Of a DNA stretch of 64,000 nucleotides, positions 7,758 to 52,145 are shown piece by piece; the first letter of the stretch is position 1; every line of letters begins with the position of its first letter. The stretch is taken from assembly GCA_963829525.1 (NCBI GenBank), contig CAWHIJ010000003.1, positions 512,001 through 576,000 of the forward strand. Reading direction: 5' to 3'. The notes beneath the pieces are model-generated. The model did no database searches. It worked only from the letters and a program-made list of their open reading frames with translations, and was not told where the DNA came from. This DNA is from an uncultured Actinomycetota bacterium (GTDB taxonomy: Bacteria; Actinomycetota; Actinomycetes; JAHEKZ01). The position numbers and the translations under genes are program-made.

Positions 7758-7855
7758 GGTGCAGTTCTCCTCGGCTGGTCTGGGCTGCTCAGGGCCGCTC
7801 ACGTCTGAACGTAGTCGAGCGATCGGGCACGCGGGAAGGATGACAGTCTTTGCCC

Positions 7856-8596
7856 GTGACGACTACCGACCCGTTGGCCACTCTCGCCGCCCTTCCTGGC
7901 GTTGCCGAGGCGATCGACGCCAGCCGGGCCGCAATGGACGGGCTCCTGCGCGAGCCGGCCCTCCGACGGCAACGGGGTGAGGTTCGGGCAGCCGCTCGAC
8001 TGCGGTCGGCTTGGGCGTCTGCGCGGCTGGCCGGAGCCGACATTGCGTGGGAGCACTTTGCGGCACCGTTTGCCGATGACCAAGATGGGCGCCTTGCAGA
8101 CGCCGCCCTGCAGGTGGCCGGTGAGGTGGGCGGGCTCGCCGATACCTGGAAACGGGCACCGCTGCAGGTCCTCGCTCGACTGCACACGGTTGCGATGTCG
8201 GAGCGGGTGGCCGAGGTCGCACTCGGACGCCCGCGCGCCGATGCAGGCGTCAGTGAACGCCTGAGGACCCTGGCCGGCGTTGTCACGCAGACGAATGCAC
8301 CGGGAGTGCTGGTCGCTGGCGTCGTCCACGCCGAGCTGATGACGCTGCAGCCTTTTGGCTCCGCCGACGACCTGGTCGCGCGTGCGGCGTCCCGCGTGGT
8401 GCTGGTCTCACGCGGGGCCGACCCCGATGCGCTGACGGTTCCGGAGATGGGGCTGCTCGAGCTCGGCGCCGAGGCCTACGGCGAGGCGTTGGAGGCTTTC
8501 GCCGAAGGGTCGCCCGTCGGGCTGGCGCAGTGGCTGACATTCCACGCGGCGTCCGTGCAGCGCGGTGCAACCTTCGCGCGCACCCTCTGCCGTTGA
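7856..8596 (+). CDS. Fic-like protein with degenerate motif (Rv3662c/SCO3559-like 'oxidoreductase')
   Basis: QVLARLH and [19 protein letters not shown]; convergent with the HAD gene as in other actinobacteria. Confidence 0.75.
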
Positions 8597-8628
8597 CCCA
8601 CCTCGCCGGCACTTGACTGCGGCTGCGG

Positions 8629-9462
8629 CTAGGACGATGCCACGCGACGGCGTCGTGACGCGGCCACGGCGACAATGAGCGCGGCAGCCACCAGCACCAT
8701 GCCCATCGATGCCCCAGCGAACGCGCGCTGCCGGGTGTCGAGCTCGGACAGGTGCGGGATATCGGGGACCGAAGGGAGGCGTCGACGCATCGCGACAGGC
8801 CGATTGAAGCGCAGCACCGGCCACTCGCGCTCGGCGGCCACTCGGGCAAGCTCTTTGTCAGGGTTCACAACCGTCGGGTGGCCCACCGCCTCGAGCATCG
8901 GCAGATCGGTCTGCGAGTCGCTGTAGGCGTAGGACGCCGCAAGGTCGTACCCGTGCCTCTCGGCAAGCTCGCGCATGGCGTCGGCCTTCGTTGGGCCGTA
9001 GGCGTAGTACTCGATTTCTCCGGTGTACTTGCCGTCCTCGATCACCATCTGGGTGGCGACAACGCGGTCGGCACCGAGCATCTGGCCGATCGGCTCGACC
9101 ACCTCGGCACCGGAGGAACTGACGATCACGATGTCGCGTCCTGCCTCGCGGTGCTCTTCGATCAGGGTTACCGCTTCGTCGTAGACGATCGGGTCGATCA
9201 GCTCGTGGAGCGTCTCGGCAACGACCTCGCGCACCTGAGCCACCGGCCAGCCGGTCACCATCGACTGGAGGTACTGCCGCATCCGCTCCATCTGGTCGTG
9301 GTCAGCACCGCCGGCAAGGTACACAAACTGCGCGTACCCGCTGCGGAGCACCGTGCGTCGGTTGATCAGCCCGCTCGTATAGAAGGGTCGGCTGAAGGCC
9401 AACGAACTCGACCTCGCAATGATCGTCTTGTCGAGGTCGAAGAAGGCTGCGGCACGGGTCAC
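8629..9462 (-). CDS. HAD-IB hydrolase (Rv3661/CicA-like)
   Basis: AAFFDLDKT, IVSSS, AYSDSQTDLPML; C-terminal TM helix; start chosen at GTG (TRAAAFF). Confidence 0.9.
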   Translation of the reverse strand: MTRAAAFFDLDKTIIARSSSLAFSRPFYTSGLINRRTVLRSGYAQFVYLAGGADHDQMERMRQYLQSMVTGWPVAQVREVVAETLHELIDPIVYDEAVTLIEEHREAGRDIVIVSSSGAEVVEPIGQMLGADRVVATQMVIEDGKYTGEIEYYAYGPTKADAMRELAERHGYDLAASYAYSDSQTDLPMLEAVGHPTVVNPDKELARVAAEREWPVLRFNRPVAMRRRLPSVPDIPHLSELDTRQRAFAGASMGMVLVAAALIVAVAASRRRRVASS

Positions 9463-9615
9463 CTCCTCGACAATAGATAGCCCCGGGGGGGCTATCTGGG
9501 ATTGGGCCATTTGGGTGGTTCTCCGCGTCGACAGGTGCCGGATGGCCTGACCCGATTGCGCTCTGTAGTGACTCGGGTACACGATGTTGTTATCTGGTCC
9601 TCCGCGGTCCAGAAC

Positions 9616-9684: not shown

Positions 9685-9834
9685 GCATGTCCGGACTCGG
9701 ACCAGCGCGAGTTCGCGACTCCGGGCGGCGTCCACACCCCCTCGCACGTTGCGCTTGTCCCCAGACGCCCTGGCGCCCTCTGCGCGAGACCTCGCCGGTC
9801 GGCCACGCTCGCGTCCCCATGTGAGGAGGCCGTC

Positions 9835-10890
9835 ATGTCGTACGCAACTGCCCGTCCGCTCCTGGTCACCGCTGACGGTGGCCTTCAGGACGCCGTCCTC
9901 GCTGTGGCCTCTGAGGCGCAGGTCGAGGTGGCTGTGGCCGCCGAGGTCGGTGCCGCAGCAGCTCTTTGGGCGACAGCCCCGCTCGTGCTCCTTGACGTTG
10001 GCTTGGTCGAGTCAGCCCTTCGCACCCTGCCGGTGCCGCGTCCGGGTCTTGTCGTCGTGTCACGAAACATCGAGGACCCGGCTGTGTGGCGGCGACTCGT
10101 GGCGGTGGGGGCCGAGCAAGTGGTCGAGCTGCCGCAAGGCGCCCCTTGGCTCTTTGAGCGCTTCGGCCGCAGCCTGGAGTCTGACCCCACAGCGGACCTC
10201 GTCGTGGTCGCCGGAGCCGTTGGAGGAGCTGGCGCAAGCACGCTCTCAGCGGCCCTGGCCCAGCACGCGCTGGCGTCGCAGTCACGCGCGGTGCTGGTCG
10301 ATCTGGACCCTCTCGGGGGCGGACTCGACCTGATGCTCGGGGCCGAGGGTGCCGCAGGGGCACGTTGGGACGAGCTAGCCGGCGTCACCGGCAGGGTCGA
10401 CGACCGAATCCTGGTCGATGCCCTCCCCACCTGTGGCGGCCTGCCACTGCTCAGCTGGCCCACCGACAGCGACCTCGAGCCCGGGCCATCGGCGGTGGGC
10501 CAGGTGCTGGACGCCCTGTGTCGCCGGCCAGGCGTCGTGGTGGTCGATGCTGGCCGGGCCGATGACCAGCGAGCGGCTGTTGCGCTGGCCAAGTGCCGGC
10601 AGCTCGTGCTCGTCGTGCCGCTTCGGGTGCGGGCCGTCGCTGCGGCTCGGCGGATGCTCCACCGGTTGCCTGCTCACATATCACCCGTGGTCGTTGCTCG
10701 TGAGCCGGGCCCAGGCGGTCTGTCGCCTGACGACTTGGCGATGGCGCTCGGGGTGACAGTGACGGTGACGCTGTTCGACGACCGTAGACGCGCTGCCAAC
10801 GAAGAGCTGGGTGGCCCACCGCCATCGTCGTCAGCATGGCGGCGCGTGTGTGGCGCACTTCTCGAGGCTCGGGCTGAGGCAGCGGCCTGA
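9835..10890 (+). CDS. ssd: Septum site-determining protein Ssd (CpaE/MinD-like)
   Basis: GAVGGAGASTL, LVDLDPLGGGLD; GAGGAGG RBS; first gene of the Tad cluster. Confidence 0.88.
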   Translation: MSYATARPLLVTADGGLQDAVLAVASEAQVEVAVAAEVGAAAALWATAPLVLLDVGLVESALRTLPVPRPGLVVVSRNIEDPAVWRRLVAVGAEQVVELPQGAPWLFERFGRSLESDPTADLVVVAGAVGGAGASTLSAALAQHALASQSRAVLVDLDPLGGGLDLMLGAEGAAGARWDELAGVTGRVDDRILVDALPTCGGLPLLSWPTDSDLEPGPSAVGQVLDALCRRPGVVVVDAGRADDQRAAVALAKCRQLVLVVPLRVRAVAAARRMLHRLPAHISPVVVAREPGPGGLSPDDLAMALGVTVTVTLFDDRRRAANEELGGPPPSSSAWRRVCGALLEARAEAAA

Positions 10891-27777: not shown

Positions 27778-27854
27778 GCCGCCTTAGCTCAGTCGGCTAG
27801 AGCGACGCACTCGTAATGCGTAGGTCATCGGTTCGACTCCGATAGGCGGCTCCA
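27778..27854 (+). tRNA. tRNA-Thr(CGT)
   Basis: Acceptor stem GCCGCCT/AGGCGGC; anticodon arm ACGCA-CTCGTAA-TGCGT; GGTTCGACTCC T-arm; encoded CCA; TAGACT -10 at 27744. Confidence 0.97.
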
Positions 27855-47743: not shown

Positions 47744-49108
47744 ATGCGACGAAGCACCAAACTTCAGACCGTTGCCCTGGTCGCCACACTCGCCGCCGGA
47801 GTTGCCCTGGTGGCGCCCGCAACGGCGTCAGCCGAACCTTCGCCAAGTGAGCAGCTGGCGGAGAGCTTGCAGCGCGCCATGCAGAACGCTGCTTTCGACG
47901 AGGTGGTCGACTTCGAGTACGACACCGCTGACGGTCCGGCACCGCAGGTGGCGAACATGCCCAATGTTGACGTGGCAGTGATCGAGCTCGACCAGATGGG
48001 GCGTCCCATTGCTGCGGCCAACGTGCTTCAGTCGAGGGACTTCCCCGAGGGACACGTCGTCGAGCTCGATGATGATCTGGCGGCGACCGGAGTGGATTGG
48101 CGGGCCTGGGACATCGATCGGTGGGACGGAGATTGGAACGCACCGTTTGCCGCCGGTTCGCAGATCGTCCCTGGGTCGGAAGGCGAGACGTTCATGTCCC
48201 CCTACCCGGCGTCGACATTCAAACTGCTCGTTGCAGTGCACACCCTGCAGCTGGTCGACGCGGGCGTCATTGATCTGGATGCTGAGTTCGTGTACAAGCG
48301 CCAGAGGGGCGATACCTGCCTAGGTGAGAGGGCGAAGTTCCGGTCAACGACGGCAGCCGAGCTCGAGAAGATGATCACCTACTCGAGCAACCTTTCAACG
48401 TGTGCACTCCTCAAGCAACTTCACAACCTGCACGAGATCGGTGCCATGAATCAGGGCTACGTCGACCTTGGGCTGCCGACCCTCCAGGTGACCGGCACCG
48501 ACGCCGGTGCGGGTGGTACGTGGAACCCCGGTTCGATCCACATGACGGCAATGGACACCGCGCGCCTCCTGCTCATCGTCAATGGCTCACCGGGAGTTCT
48601 GTGGAGGGCCCCCGACGGCAACCCTGTCGTCGCTGACCGGGTGCTCAGCGAGGAGTCTCAGGCACTGCTGATGAAGCATCTCGGCAACCAAGGATTCAAT
48701 GAAGTGCTCTCAACGCCCAACTGGTGCGGCCTCGACTATCCCGCGCAAGGCATTCCGGCCACCGTTCCCGAGCGATGGGTCGATCCCGTCGACGGAACCG
48801 TCACCGTCGACGGCATCCCTTACTTCCAGGACGTGCGGCCGTGCAACGAGGCAGCAGAGGTGACATTCGCGCACAAGACAGGGCTGACCTACAACTACGG
48901 GTCTGACGCCGGCATCGTCAAGGCCGTTGCCGGTCAAGATGGACGGCACTACATCGTGGCGGCCTTTGCCAATCTCGGGTACCGGTACAGCGATGCCAGC
49001 CAGGCAGATTCACCTGATCTCCCTTGCTTTGTTTCCGGCGTCTGCTACACCGAGAAGTTCGCGATCTTGGGCAAGTCGATCGACGACCTCATGCGCAGGG
49101 TTTCGTAA
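47744..49108 (+). CDS. Secreted serine hydrolase of the beta-lactamase/PBP fold
   Basis: Signal peptide; PASTFK (SxxK), YSSN (SxN), HKTG. Confidence 0.85.
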   Translation: MRRSTKLQTVALVATLAAGVALVAPATASAEPSPSEQLAESLQRAMQNAAFDEVVDFEYDTADGPAPQVANMPNVDVAVIELDQMGRPIAAANVLQSRDFPEGHVVELDDDLAATGVDWRAWDIDRWDGDWNAPFAAGSQIVPGSEGETFMSPYPASTFKLLVAVHTLQLVDAGVIDLDAEFVYKRQRGDTCLGERAKFRSTTAAELEKMITYSSNLSTCALLKQLHNLHEIGAMNQGYVDLGLPTLQVTGTDAGAGGTWNPGSIHMTAMDTARLLLIVNGSPGVLWRAPDGNPVVADRVLSEESQALLMKHLGNQGFNEVLSTPNWCGLDYPAQGIPATVPERWVDPVDGTVTVDGIPYFQDVRPCNEAAEVTFAHKTGLTYNYGSDAGIVKAVAGQDGRHYIVAAFANLGYRYSDASQADSPDLPCFVSGVCYTEKFAILGKSIDDLMRRVS

Positions 49109-49147
49109 GACCGCGCCGTTCTGCCGCGTGCTGTACGAAGGCGTCTG

Positions 49148-49208
49148 TACGAGAGTTGGCCTCGGATTCTGGCCCAGATTCACCGTGATCTCGGGGCTAA
49201 CTCTCGTA
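49148..49208. repeat. Imperfect inverted repeat TACGAGAGTTGGCC...GGCTAACTCTCGTA (REP-like doublet 1)
   Basis: Arms read directly; same motif as doublet 2. Confidence 0.8.
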
Positions 49209-49325
49209 GCGGGGCTGCGCCACCGTCGTCGGCGCGTCATTCTCCCCAACCGGTGAGGGGACGTACCGTCCACAGTGGACGTCAGATGTGCCGCCACACC
49301 TGAGGAGACACTTCATGGTGTCGGC

Positions 49326-49574
49326 ATGTCAGCACACCTACCTCCTGCTATCGGCTCTCGTGTCTTCCGCGGGGTCCCCCGGCCGGAGTGCAACCCGACG
49401 TTCTGCTTCCAGGGGGAGCAGTTCCGTGCGCCACTCTCCAGACGCGGCAACGGCGCGATGGCAGCGGCTCGCTGCGCGACCAGAGGTGCGGCTGTGGGTT
49501 CCGCCGACTGGCCTCGAGATCGTTCGAAGGCCGCTCGTACGCCGCTACGAGAGACAGCCCCGAAATCTGGCTGA
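49326..49574 (+). pseudogene. Probable internally deleted DUF559/AbiEi-like gene remnant
   Basis: N-terminus MSAHLPPAIGSRVFRG resembles actinobacterial DUF559-type proteins (from memory); bracketed by the two palindromes. Confidence 0.35.
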
Positions 49575-49609
49575 CGTCGGACCCACCTACGGAGCTAACT
49601 CTCGTAGCG
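49543..49609. repeat. Imperfect inverted repeat CGCTACGAGAG...GCTAACTCTCGTAGCG (REP-like doublet 2)
   Basis: GCTAACTCTCGTAGCG occurs identically at 49196 and 49594. Confidence 0.82.
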
Positions 49610-49733
49610 ACCCGCGCGTGGCGGTGACCCGCTTGACGGTCTGTGCGGGCCGACGCTTGAGATTCGTCGTTGCAACGCATTCGTGTCGTTGCCGGGGATC
49701 GTCAGCGGCATCACGCAGACTGGAACCAGACGC

Positions 49734-49771
49734 AGAAAGGCCCCTCCAACTAGGCATTGGAGGGGCCTTCT
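49734..49771 (-). terminator. Intrinsic terminator hairpin, possibly bidirectional
   Basis: AAGGCCCCTCCAA/TTGGAGGGGCCTT stem flanked by AGAA and TTCT. Confidence 0.85.
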
Positions 49772-50009
49772 GTGGTTCACCCGGAGGTGAACCGTGGACC
49801 GGCCCGAGGGCTGGCCCTGTCGACCCGAGGGTCGACGACCCGGCCGGAGCCGGGCCAGACATCGCTGCGCTTCCCCGCCAGTTGATCCGTCTGGGTCGCC
49901 CCTGCGGTCCAACTGCTCCAGCGGTTACCCGCTGGCCTGATCCGGTGAGTTGCCTCTCCGGATCGATCCTCTGGTTGCCCTTCGGATCGGGTGCGCCTCA
50001 CGGCGTCGT
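49734..50009 (-). ncRNA. Unannotated ~280-nt structured RNA (five GNRA hairpins, four UNCG/CUCG hairpins, terminator)
   Basis: Stable tetraloops occur only on the minus strand; promoter TTGCGC(50045-50040)-N18-TAGAAC(50021-50016); no credible ORF. Confidence 0.72.
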
Positions 50010-50076
50010 GAGAGAGTTCTACGCCCGATCCGCGAGACCGCGCAAGGGTTTCGAGAAGGATTCTCAAGAACTTTCT

Positions 50077-50156
50077 TCACCCACAGATTCGTCCACAGAA
50101 CGCCACGCTTGTGTCCCCAACGCATCCCCAGGGTCGTCCACAGCGCCTGTGAACAA
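50077..50156. promoter_or_regulatory. Cluster of degenerate DnaA-box-like 9-mers
   Basis: TCACCCACA 50077, TCGTCCACA 50089 and 50134, GTGTCCCCA 50111, GCATCCCCA 50122, inverted TGTGAACAA 50148. Confidence 0.45.
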
Positions 50157-50191
50157 GTCCCCGCCGTGCGCTGGCCCGTTGCGGTTCGGGC

Positions 50192-50671
50192 TTACGGCGT
50201 GTAGCGCTTGAAGGAGGCTTCGATCTCTTTCTCAGTCTCCGAGCGGCCTTCCCAGCTGGCGCCTTCGACCGACTTGCCGGGCTCGAGGTCTTTGTAGACC
50301 TCGAAGAAGTGCTGGATCTCGAGCTTGTCGAACTCCGGCATGTGGTGAATGTCGCGTAGGTGTTCCTTGCGAGGGTCACGGGCGGGGACACAGATGATCT
50401 TGTCGTCGCCACCGGCCTCGTCGGTCATTCGGAACATCCCGATGGCCCGGCACATGATCACGCAGCCGGGGAACGTTGGCTCGTCAAGCAGGACCAGGGC
50501 GTCCAGGGGGTCGCCGTCGAGGCCGAGGGTGTTCTCGATGAAGCCGTAGTCGGCTGGGTACCGCGTCGAGGTGAAGAGCATCCGGTCGAGGCGGATGCGG
50601 CCGGTCTTCTTGTCGAGCTCGTACTTGTTGCGATTGCCCTGTGGGATCTCGATGAAGACGTCGAACTCCAC
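50192..50671 (-). CDS. ppa: Soluble inorganic pyrophosphatase
   Basis: [31 protein letters not shown]. Confidence 0.97.
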
Positions 50672-50771
50672 GACGGTCCCTTCTGGATGGTTCGTTGCGG
50701 TGGCTTAGGGTCGCTTTTGCGCGACGCTTCAGTGTCCCGCACGACTACATAACCGCCACGAGGGGGTCCGG

Positions 50772-52145
50772 ATGCCGCGAGCCCGCTGGTGGGCGATCGG
50801 CGCCCTGTCCGTGGTCACCCTTCTGGTCGTGCTGCTCGATGTCACAGGGGTCATTTTCACCGAGGAGGCGCCGCCGCTCCCGCCTCCTGCAGTCGTCGTC
50901 CCCACGCTGGCGGACGCCGCCGATGCGGTACCCGCCGCGGTGGAGCCGGGACCTGTCGCTGCCGACCCTCGGGTGGTGCGCGCCGTCGAGCGAGCGTTGG
51001 AGTCTGATGCGCTGGGTACCTCGGTCCATGGCTCGGTGGCCCCGCTGGCTGGGCCGGCTGCTGCTTGGATCGACGTGGACGGTTCCGGGCAGGCCACACC
51101 CGCGTCCACACTCAAGCTTTGGACCGCTACGGCGGTGCTCGACGCCTACGAGCCGCACAGTCGGTTGGAGACGTCAGTTCTGTGGGACCCCGTTGACGAG
51201 CGTCTTGTGCTGGTCGGTGGGGGAGATGCCACTCTCACGACTGGTCCCGACCGTGCTGCAGACACCGCATCGCTGGCTGAGCTCGCCAAAGCCACGGTTC
51301 GAGTCCTGCGTCGCGAAGGTGTCACGTCCGTGCGGCTGGGATATGACGACGGGCTCTTCTCCGGCCCCGCGGTTTCGCCGGCGTGGGAGCCCACTTACGT
51401 CACCTCGGGTGTGATCGCGCCTGTCACTTCGTTGATGGCCGATCAGGGCAGAGTCACCCCCGATGGTGTCGCCCGGCTGCCCGACCCGGCGTCGGGCGCT
51501 GCTGAGAGCTTTGGGGCGTTGCTCGAAAGGGGTGGTGTCGCCATTCGGGGTGCGGTCAATCAGGTGGCATCCTCGAGCAGCGAACCGATCGCATCGGTGG
51601 TCTCGCCCCCCATGAACGACCTGGTCGAACGCATGCTGCGAGACAGTGACAACCAGCTCGCCGAGTCACTGGGTCGGATGGCGGCACTGGCGCAGGGCGA
51701 GCCGGGAAGCTTCGCCGGAGCGGTACGGGCACTTGAGCAGGCGGCTGCAGATCAGGGAGTCGATCTCGGCGCCTCCGACCTCTTTGACGCCAGCGGGCTC
51801 TCCCGCGAGGACACCTTGCCGCCCGAGTCGCTGGTCGAGGCCCTTCAATCAGCCAGTGCGGAGCCACAGCTGGCATCGATCCTCTCGGGCCTGGCCGTTG
51901 CCGGCTTTGACGGAACGCTGGCCGACCGATTCGTGCTGGGAGAGGCCGCCCAAGGAGCCGGCGTCGTACGCGCCAAGACCGGCACTCTCACCGGAATCTC
52001 AGCCGAAGCCGGTCTCGTGACCACGTGTGACGGCGGCCTTGTGGCGTACGCATTCATCGCTGACGAGGTCGTCGACACCGAGGCGGCCCGGGCTGCACTT
52101 GATGACGCTGCGGCGATCTTGGCCTCGTGCCGTGGGCAGCGCTGA
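50772..52145 (+). CDS. dacB: D-Ala-D-Ala carboxypeptidase/endopeptidase (PBP4, S13)
   Basis: PASTLK, SDN, AKTGTL. Confidence 0.92.
   Translation: MPRARWWAIGALSVVTLLVVLLDVTGVIFTEEAPPLPPPAVVVPTLADAADAVPAAVEPGPVAADPRVVRAVERALESDALGTSVHGSVAPLAGPAAAWIDVDGSGQATPASTLKLWTATAVLDAYEPHSRLETSVLWDPVDERLVLVGGGDATLTTGPDRAADTASLAELAKATVRVLRREGVTSVRLGYDDGLFSGPAVSPAWEPTYVTSGVIAPVTSLMADQGRVTPDGVARLPDPASGAAESFGALLERGGVAIRGAVNQVASSSSEPIASVVSPPMNDLVERMLRDSDNQLAESLGRMAALAQGEPGSFAGAVRALEQAAADQGVDLGASDLFDASGLSREDTLPPESLVEALQSASAEPQLASILSGLAVAGFDGTLADRFVLGEAAQGAGVVRAKTGTLTGISAEAGLVTTCDGGLVAYAFIADEVVDTEAARAALDDAAAILASCRGQR

Follow-up and report, generated by a model that had tools for sequence, protein, structure and literature searches.

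What is the row of tetraloop-capped hairpins that stands between a promoter and a terminator, with no gene after it, in the genome of an uncultured actinobacterium? The locus lies in a stretch of 64,000 nucleotides (nt; hereafter the window) of GenBank assembly GCA_963829525.1 (contig CAWHIJ010000003.1, positions 512,001 to 576,000; Actinomycetota, Actinomycetes, JAHEKZ01), for which an initial annotation had proposed an orphan non-coding RNA (ncRNA), a candidate for a relocated Ms1-like RNA or a new class. We are nearly certain that an ncRNA, here called the hairpin-array RNA, is encoded on the minus strand of window 49734-50009 and that it belongs to a class-wide actinobacterial family not in Rfam; we read it as a stable RNA that is transcribed independently. 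Judging from the sequences, what is new is this undescribed family together with the placement of its promoter behind sites resembling the boxes of the replication initiator DnaA. Neither an RNA of this kind nor a small RNA (sRNA) coupled to DnaA boxes turned up in a full-text literature search, whose returns were in part titles and the openings of abstracts.

Structure and covariation

The predicted transcript of about 275 nt (49734-50009, minus strand) would begin near the A at 50009, as judged from the spacing to the -10 element, and end past a terminal hairpin. Its sense strand folds to -187.7 kcal/mol (z = -8.97), a value reached by none of 100 shuffled sequences, and the antisense strand gives z = -5.16. 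BLAST within the genus recovered the element from 10 of 13 other genomes at identities down to 66%; the three genomes without a match are 69-76% complete. In an alignment of 12 loci of the genus the stems vary, and hardly any change is seen in the -35 and -10 elements, in the 21 bases transcribed first or in the terminal hairpin.

Covariation was tested on the five 5' hairpins in these 12 loci. Pairing is possible in 86.9% of 474 cells, as against 23.6-46.9% when the partners are slid, and both sides have changed in 16 of 41 pairs, as against 2-7 with slid partners. None of 500 shuffles matched the observed pairing, the number of double-change cells or the covariation score. The claim of selection at the RNA level, which had been drawn from strand-specific tetraloops, is borne out by this covariation and by the strand bias of the caps across the family, given below. 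The claim of a stand-alone structured ncRNA is supported as well, with promoter and terminator both conserved.

The promoter, five GNRA hairpins, linker, four UCCG/CUCG hairpins and terminator that had been listed for the minus strand are all present at the positions assigned to them. At the extreme 5' end stands H1 (CGCC-GUGA-GGCG, 49994-50005), with a stem invariant in 12/12 loci and a GNRA loop in 11 of them; in the modelled folds the same bases form either H1 or a closing helix with the linker, and the minimum-free-energy fold of the single sequence gives the latter. Changes on both sides are seen in 3 of 7 pairs of H2 (GAUCC-GAA-GG-GCAA-CC-AGA-GGAUC, 49965-49988), 3 of 10 of H3 (GAUCCGG-A-GAG-GCAA-CUC-A-CCGGAUC, 49939-49964) and 4 of 7 of H4 (CCAGCGG-GUAA-CCGCUGG, 49918-49935). 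They are also seen in 6 of 10 outer pairs of H5, a long irregular hairpin with a GCGA cap (49879-49915) and the weakest part of the alignment, with 72% of its cells paired. A purine-rich linker follows (GGCGGGGAAGCGCAGCGAUGUC, 49857-49878, with the core GCGGGGAAGCGCAGCG); it is the longest predicted single-stranded stretch, and its motif GGGRAG.CGCAGCG is semi-conserved within the genus. Beyond it the predicted fold has four hairpins with UCCG or CUCG loops (49837-49856, 49819-49836, 49796-49817 and 49774-49793), and relatives carry between one and five of this UNCG type, the number differing by species through insertion and deletion of whole hairpins. The RNA closes with a 15-bp terminal hairpin, GAAGGCCCCUCCAA-UGCCUAG-UUGGAGGGGCCUUU (49736-49770), and the U-rich tail UUUCU.

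A class-wide RNA family

The RNA is no orphan: among the 401 genomes of the class that were sampled, at least 89 contain a homologue, with lengths of about 154-882 nt. That the family is actinobacterial is judged from gene order, G+C content and the presence of Ms1-type loci in the same class. The window's own family makes up its whole order (20 genomes). Two more genera of this family have shorter versions of about 155 nt, detected with a covariance model of the 5' domain; a fourth genus of the order gave one homologue by hairpin pattern and a fifth gave one by promoter model. Outside the order, BLAST with the upstream array and promoter led to a full homologue in another family (G134).

Two further searches extended the family across the class. 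A pattern for the terminal hairpin occurs in 62 of the 401 genomes, nearly always once each, and its reversed control in none; the invariance of the hairpin core in these loci is partly by construction, because this pattern was what picked them out. The second search used a sequence model (A5, R2) spanning the box pair, the promoter and the first hairpins. It recognised all three positive controls and, among 77 genomes negative for the pattern, 27 with the RNA, which added further families. All 14 model-found loci that were read carry GNRA hairpins and the terminal hairpin, which is thus also present in members found without it as a query. Its loop is CUCAUAC in 12 of these 14 independently found loci, the variants CUCGUAC and CCCUUAC also occur, and its stem shows compensatory changes (CCUCC/GGAGG, CCUCG/CGAGG, CCUUC/GAAGG and CCUCU/AGAGG). 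The top pair of the stem switches between A-U and U-A, with 15 loci each way. Over the many families represented by L072-L101 and L116-L145 the loop is kept as CUCAU[AG]C while the stem covaries; the window's genus has UGCCUAG. The promoter model gave no match in about a dozen families, each represented by 1-4 genomes, two of these families having a putative Ms1 at the HAD-IB gene, and these absences rest on small samples and on the sensitivity of pattern and model.

The members follow one fixed plan. Two or more DnaA-box-like sites come first, then about 34 nt of spacer with A-runs and a promoter of the type TTGYGC-N17-19-TAGAAA. The RNA opens with a hairpin at its extreme 5' end and closes with a long terminal hairpin rich in G+C, and the body enclosed by these two consists of one to about 15 GNRA-capped modules. 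Across 39 family loci the predicted RNA measures 154-882 nt and bears 1-15 GNRA-capped hairpins. Counting stems of at least 4 bp, there are 219 of them in the sense orientation as against 4 in the antisense one, the commonest loops being GCGA (99), GCAA (69), GAGA (25) and GUGA (14). The body of one long member is a 54-nt unit repeated 8.4 times.

The initial annotation could not assign the RNA to a family, and Rfam agrees. At gathering score, Rfam 15 gives only a tRNA (27778-27851) in the window, and 16 family loci gave no match. Weaker matches (snoZ248, COG3610-DE and others, E 0.35-9.5) were set aside as chance.

Some genomes contain the RNA gene as a tandem of two or three, every copy having a separate box pair, promoter and terminal hairpin (L126, at G024:C1:1890658-1891919; L077; L078; G099:C5:556995-557521). 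At L034 (G014:C59:3696-3785) the terminal hairpin is followed, about 40 nt on and downstream of the RNA, by another of its type. Genome G010 has two dacB-ppa-RNA-DUF6941 copies on contigs C6 and C15 (L006, L016), 79-81% identical to the window; with assembly contamination at 4%, a mixture of two strains in the bin seems likelier than a duplication. A match in G005 (E 0.0072) was dismissed because it lies within coding sequence, and BLAST matches in G025 and G027 were left out of the homologue set; the hairpin pattern afterwards confirmed G027.

Promoter and upstream DnaA-box-like array

The -35 element is TTGCGC (50040-50045, minus strand; TTGCG invariant in 12/12 genus loci, family consensus TTG[TC]G[CG]) and the -10 element is TAGAAC, followed by T (50016-50021; TA[GC]AA in 12/12 genus loci, family TA[GC]A[AC]N), with 18 nt between them. 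A generic promoter and terminator scan returned no site in 49000-51000, so the promoter call rests on conservation.

Between this promoter and the stop codon of the preceding gene, ppa, lies a feature that the initial annotation did not mention, a conserved array of six DnaA-box-like heptamers (50079-50154, minus strand) that shares its words with the spacer between dnaA and dnaN and with the dnaA promoter of the same genome. From the distal end they are GTTCACA (inverted, 50148-50154), TGTGGAC (50136-50142), TGGGGAT (50124-50130), TGGGGAC (50113-50119), TGTGGAC (50091-50097) and TGTGGGT (50079-50085), the starts of neighbouring boxes being mostly 11-12 nt apart. A 33-nt A/T-rich spacer with phased A-runs (50046-50078) separates the proximal box from the -35 element. 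The boxes were named for this likeness to oriC and for their likeness to TTGTCCACA, the actinobacterial DnaA-box consensus.

Box order and spacing are kept in 16/16 loci from four genera of the order, despite different flanking genes, and every family member checked has an upstream array of heptamers resembling the DnaA boxes at the genome's own oriC. In 33 of 39 family loci the end of the proximal box lies 33-36 nt from the -35 element (34 nt in 21), and the second box usually lies 11-12 nt further upstream. In these loci the 200 nt ahead of the promoter carry 17.6 boxes per kb and the remainder 0.50, a 35-fold difference. In the window itself four strict matches upstream of the RNA fall in a span of 52 nt, against a window average of one per 1.8 kb. 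Clusters of TG[TG]GGAC are few in the genome: oriC and one other intergenic site lead with five each, and the RNA locus is among those listed. The array thus has the marks of a DnaA-box cluster, namely several sites like those of its own oriC, in helical phase, at a position relative to the promoter that is fixed across species.

Other arrays of this kind were seen. Another of the genome's few clusters, three DnaA-box-like heptamers all on the minus strand (9730-9819), lies within the window in the 325-nt spacer between the start of the HAD-IB gene and a 351-amino-acid (aa) gene (9835-10890) that has no Pfam match. A class-wide second array, TGTGGAC-N5-TGGGGAT-N4-TGGGGAC with further boxes, occurs outside the window at G000:C3:958993-959131 in the same genome, at L056 and L062 in the genus, and at L054, L059, L061, L069 and L070 in other families. 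It precedes a gene whose product starts with a conserved ...VRRS.RRRRTVSAYREG... stretch, presumably a DUF45/YgjP-like protein, and probably marks another member of the DnaA regulon. At L057, L058 and L065 a similar array adjoins the start of a reverse-strand open reading frame (ORF) which, as we read it, resembles the N-terminus of NrdR.

Expression

Twenty public sequencing runs hold part of the stretch, and six of them are RNA libraries. In each of three RNA libraries, from three studies, the sole contig on 49200-50700 lies wholly within the predicted RNA with 0-1 mismatch (49756-49985, 49768-49996 and 49802-50001; 230, 229 and 200 nt), and the RNA is apparently expressed. In X15, X16 and X19 positions 49200-49755 and 50002-50700 are uncovered, a lack of cover which proves nothing. 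Cover of ppa in X20, at 90-95% likeness, was attributed to other organisms.

Gene setting

The gene is present once in the 2.96-Mb genome, as the check for dispersed copies showed. As had been noted, no gene follows on its strand: downstream on the minus strand there is no credible ORF, and the next gene 3' of the RNA, of the beta-lactamase family by Pfam (47744-49108), is convergent. Its upstream neighbour on the same strand is the inorganic pyrophosphatase gene ppa (50192-50671), from which a D-Ala-D-Ala carboxypeptidase gene (50772-52145) diverges, both named by Pfam; beyond stand a metalloprotease-like ORF and then tilS-, hpt- and ftsH-like ORFs, named from their translations. The roughly 625 nt between the terminal hairpin and the beta-lactamase-like gene (49109-49733) contain no convincing ORF or Rfam match, and the two closest relatives show only weak conservation of this stretch; other species have the beta-lactamase-like gene or a DUF6941 gene within about 180 nt 3' of the RNA.

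The gene ppa precedes the RNA in one genus only, and the neighbours differ in other genera and families; a comparison of flanking genes revealed no protein gene that accompanies the RNA across families. We accordingly rejected a 3' untranslated region of ppa. A repeat element was rejected given the single genomic copy and the lack of a tandem repeat in 49600-50200, and a small protein because conservation does not extend to the ATG at 49862 and indel lengths do not come in multiples of three.

In the window's order, three genomes have the RNA gene 240-290 kb from dnaA, with transcription directed towards oriC. Elsewhere the distance is 90 kb (G027) or about 1.3 Mb (G104, G147), all co-directional, and these six genomes yield no general rule for position or direction relative to dnaA. 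In the further genomes checked, dnaA is on contigs other than that of the RNA gene.

Relation to Ms1

What defines Ms1 is a position between a HAD-IB hydrolase gene and the conserved neighbour of that gene (PMC9130861), together with a long hairpin bearing a central bubble, which PMC4191392 describes as required for binding the RNA polymerase core. The initial annotation was right that the Ms1 locus near 8600 is empty: the HAD-IB gene (8629-9510, minus strand) and a 248-aa gene (7850-8596, plus strand) converge there with 33 nt between them, at the place that putative Ms1 occupies in relatives. The hairpin-array RNA lies 41 kb from this slot, and none of 65 family loci (35 + 30) has a HAD-IB gene within 1.5 kb of the RNA. 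The modelled, covariation-supported fold is a row of local hairpins without a long central-bubble hairpin. In four genomes of the class synteny led to putative Ms1 loci, which lack the box array, the GNRA rows and such a terminal hairpin, and the putative loci L102-L105 and L110-L115 share no sequence block with the hairpin-array RNA. A 3' motif derived from the synteny loci is present in 29 of 401 class genomes and in 0 of 20 of the window's order. Both RNAs occur in G059, G235, G280 and G308 (unpublished), with the Ms1 motif at its expected synteny. The hairpin-array RNA is therefore not Ms1, since sequence, fold and synteny differ and the two co-occur in four genomes, and the suggestion of a relocated Ms1-like RNA finds no support.

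The promoters resemble each other. The type CCCTTG..-N17-19-TA[GC]AAA is shared with putative Ms1, with GAAACCCTT before the -35 element in some lineages; the putative Ms1 promoters L110-L114 and window 50040-50078 have AAAGATC..GAAACCCTT before the -35 element, with TACAAA and TAGAAC as -10 elements. On sequence grounds this likeness may reflect shared regulation or a common promoter class. Some of the Micrococcales Ms1 candidates of PMC9130861 might be this RNA, although 0 of 65 loci have Ms1 synteny.

Proposed function and alternative explanations

We propose that DnaA, bound to the boxes, would set the rate of transcription, in either direction, so that the amount of RNA would follow the replication-initiation state. 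The end hairpins would make the RNA long-lived, and the repeated modules would bind several copies of one protein, as a sponge or scaffold. Coupling of RNA synthesis to DnaA seems to us probable from the conserved array, while the protein sponge, which the initial annotation had raised and which we favour among the mechanisms, is a tentative suggestion that we rate as somewhat less likely than not. For the reading as a whole, a stable multivalent hairpin RNA that probably binds protein and whose synthesis is coupled to DnaA, we regard the balance as about even. That DnaA sets the level of a class-wide hairpin RNA titrating a global factor (RNA polymerase, a ribonuclease or DnaA) is a bolder form which we consider unlikely.

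Several observations weigh against this proposal. A GNRA loop is a common structural cap and not necessarily a site of binding, and no protein gene travels with the RNA across families, which therefore offers no pointer to a partner. The DnaA-box label is one that we infer from likeness to the genome's own oriC and to the actinobacterial consensus; the heptamer is not over-represented across the window (35 found, 36.6 expected), and its clustering alone is unusual. As to the fold, H1 never varies and thus shows no covariation, and the single-sequence fold replaces it by the closing helix with the linker. The slid-partner control favours the tested structure because that structure was derived from the window's own sequence, and one measure, that of further pair types, does not exceed shuffles (261 of 500). 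A wide-family MAFFT alignment of the 5' end gave six consensus pairs only, because hairpin registers differ. Finally, the library contigs come without strand or ends and with possible DNA carry-over, and are therefore supportive rather than decisive.

Among the alternatives, the one that we rate highest, while still thinking it improbable, is a functional analogue of Ms1 or 6S RNA, which would bind RNA polymerase, store or inhibit it, and replace Ms1 where the slot is empty. The 33-nt slot in the window, the want of an Rfam 6S match in the genome and of the Ms1 3' motif in all 20 genomes of the order, the comparable size and high structure, and a promoter type like that of putative Ms1 (CCCTTG..-N17-18-TACAAA, GAAACCCTT before the -35 element) all speak for it, as does the unrelated RNA CoRP that Corynebacterium, likewise without Ms1, uses according to PMC11077062. 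It is hard to reconcile with a row of local hairpins in place of the long central-bubble hairpin needed for Ms1 binding (PMC4191392), with the lack of sequence shared with putative Ms1 loci, with the four genomes that have both RNAs, and with a body of 1-15 hairpins, unlike an open-promoter mimic. A little less probable again is a base-pairing sRNA, in which a conserved single-stranded part would pair with mRNAs or another RNA and the hairpins would only stabilise the molecule. This part would be either the G-rich linker or the heptaloop of the terminal hairpin, which reads CUCAUAC in most families and UGCCUAG in the window. The heptaloop is indeed kept while its stem covaries, down to CUCAUAC in most independently found loci and a top pair that switches both ways, and the linker is semi-conserved in the genus. 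However, complements of the loop with at most one mismatch amount, genome-wide, to the gene itself and four sites unlike targets; the window's genus has another loop than the other families, with no obvious target that co-varies, and the variable number of modules is left unexplained.

The functional unit might instead be the DNA, with the boxes titrating or modulating DnaA and the neighbouring transcription mainly modulating DnaA occupancy; datA and DARS of Escherichia coli and the DnaA-box clusters of Streptomyces are the comparison loci. The array resembles its own oriC in words and in 11-12-nt phasing, is among few such clusters in the genome, and moves jointly with the gene through differing neighbourhoods. 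We give this reading a low probability, somewhat below that of base pairing, as the transcribed part shows selection at the RNA level (compensatory changes and strand-biased GNRA caps), the RNA is present in RNA libraries, and other arrays of the same type precede protein genes without such an RNA. Least probable is a self-assembling or mimic RNA, whose GNRA loops would dock into helices of other copies to form a higher-order particle or whose 7-nt loop would imitate an anticodon arm and bind a translation or tRNA-modification factor. Each molecule does carry many GNRA loops, and CUCAU[AG]C has what we take to be an anticodon-loop-like form with CAU (pyrimidine, U, three bases, purine, N). Yet no tetraloop receptor motif was seen, the window's loop UGCCUAG has no U at the second position, and the variants CUCGUAC and CCCUUAC occur.

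Significance

An unannotated RNA with homologues in at least 89 of the 401 genomes sampled, a defined promoter, defined ends, a modular body and a conserved initiator-site-like array, bears on a phylum in which few global RNA regulators are known. Were control by DnaA true, it would link replication initiation to a trans-acting RNA and add a clear new member to the poorly known actinobacterial DnaA regulon. Were a titrating RNA set by DnaA true as well, replication would be coupled to gene expression, or initiation subject to feedback, through a circuit undescribed for any bacterium. The family is a ready covariance-model target for annotation, and its fixed promoter architecture offers an experimental handle.

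Comparison with known systems

With Ms1 (MTS2823) of mycobacteria and other actinobacteria the hairpin-array RNA shares its general character: both are counted as abundant actinobacterial RNAs, some 300 nt long, that stand alone, are highly structured and have a strong promoter of similar type and a hairpin terminator. Position and direction also agree in part, since PMC4191392 reports for Ms1 what is seen in the window's order, a gene 240-290 kb from dnaA that is transcribed in the direction of dnaA; for the hairpin-array RNA, however, the origin-directed orientation fails in three other genomes. DnaA-box-like sites precede it and do not precede the putative Ms1 loci. The likeness to 6S RNA lies in both being counted as abundant structured regulatory RNAs with a gene of their own, and the difference in a hairpin array without an open-promoter-like bubble. 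The Rfam model of 6S (RF00013) matched neither the window, at gathering score or with E up to 10, nor the whole genome with E up to 1. CoRP of Corynebacterium is 516 nt long, has tRNA genes on its flanks and is confined to a single genus (PMC11077062). Like the hairpin-array RNA, it is a long structured RNA specific to an actinobacterial lineage and occurs where Ms1 is absent; the hairpin-array RNA, in contrast, is flanked by ppa and a beta-lactamase-like gene, has no tRNA nearby and occurs in many families.

A variable number of hairpin modules between a strong promoter and a terminator, with sizes differing widely by species, recalls the sponge RNAs of the CsrB/RsmZ type. Those RNAs carry repeated GGA motifs in their hairpin loops, whereas the loops of the hairpin-array RNA are GNRA and not GGA motifs. 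To our knowledge actinobacteria lack Hfq, ProQ and CsrA, and we know of no CsrA-type protein there. CcnA of Caulobacter, reportedly a base-pairing sRNA, differs in that mode of action and in its control by CtrA. The genes sda and nrdAB are controlled by DnaA. What the hairpin-array RNA would have in common with CcnA, sda and nrdAB is a tie between a regulator and the replication or cell-cycle machinery through master-regulator sites beside the promoter.

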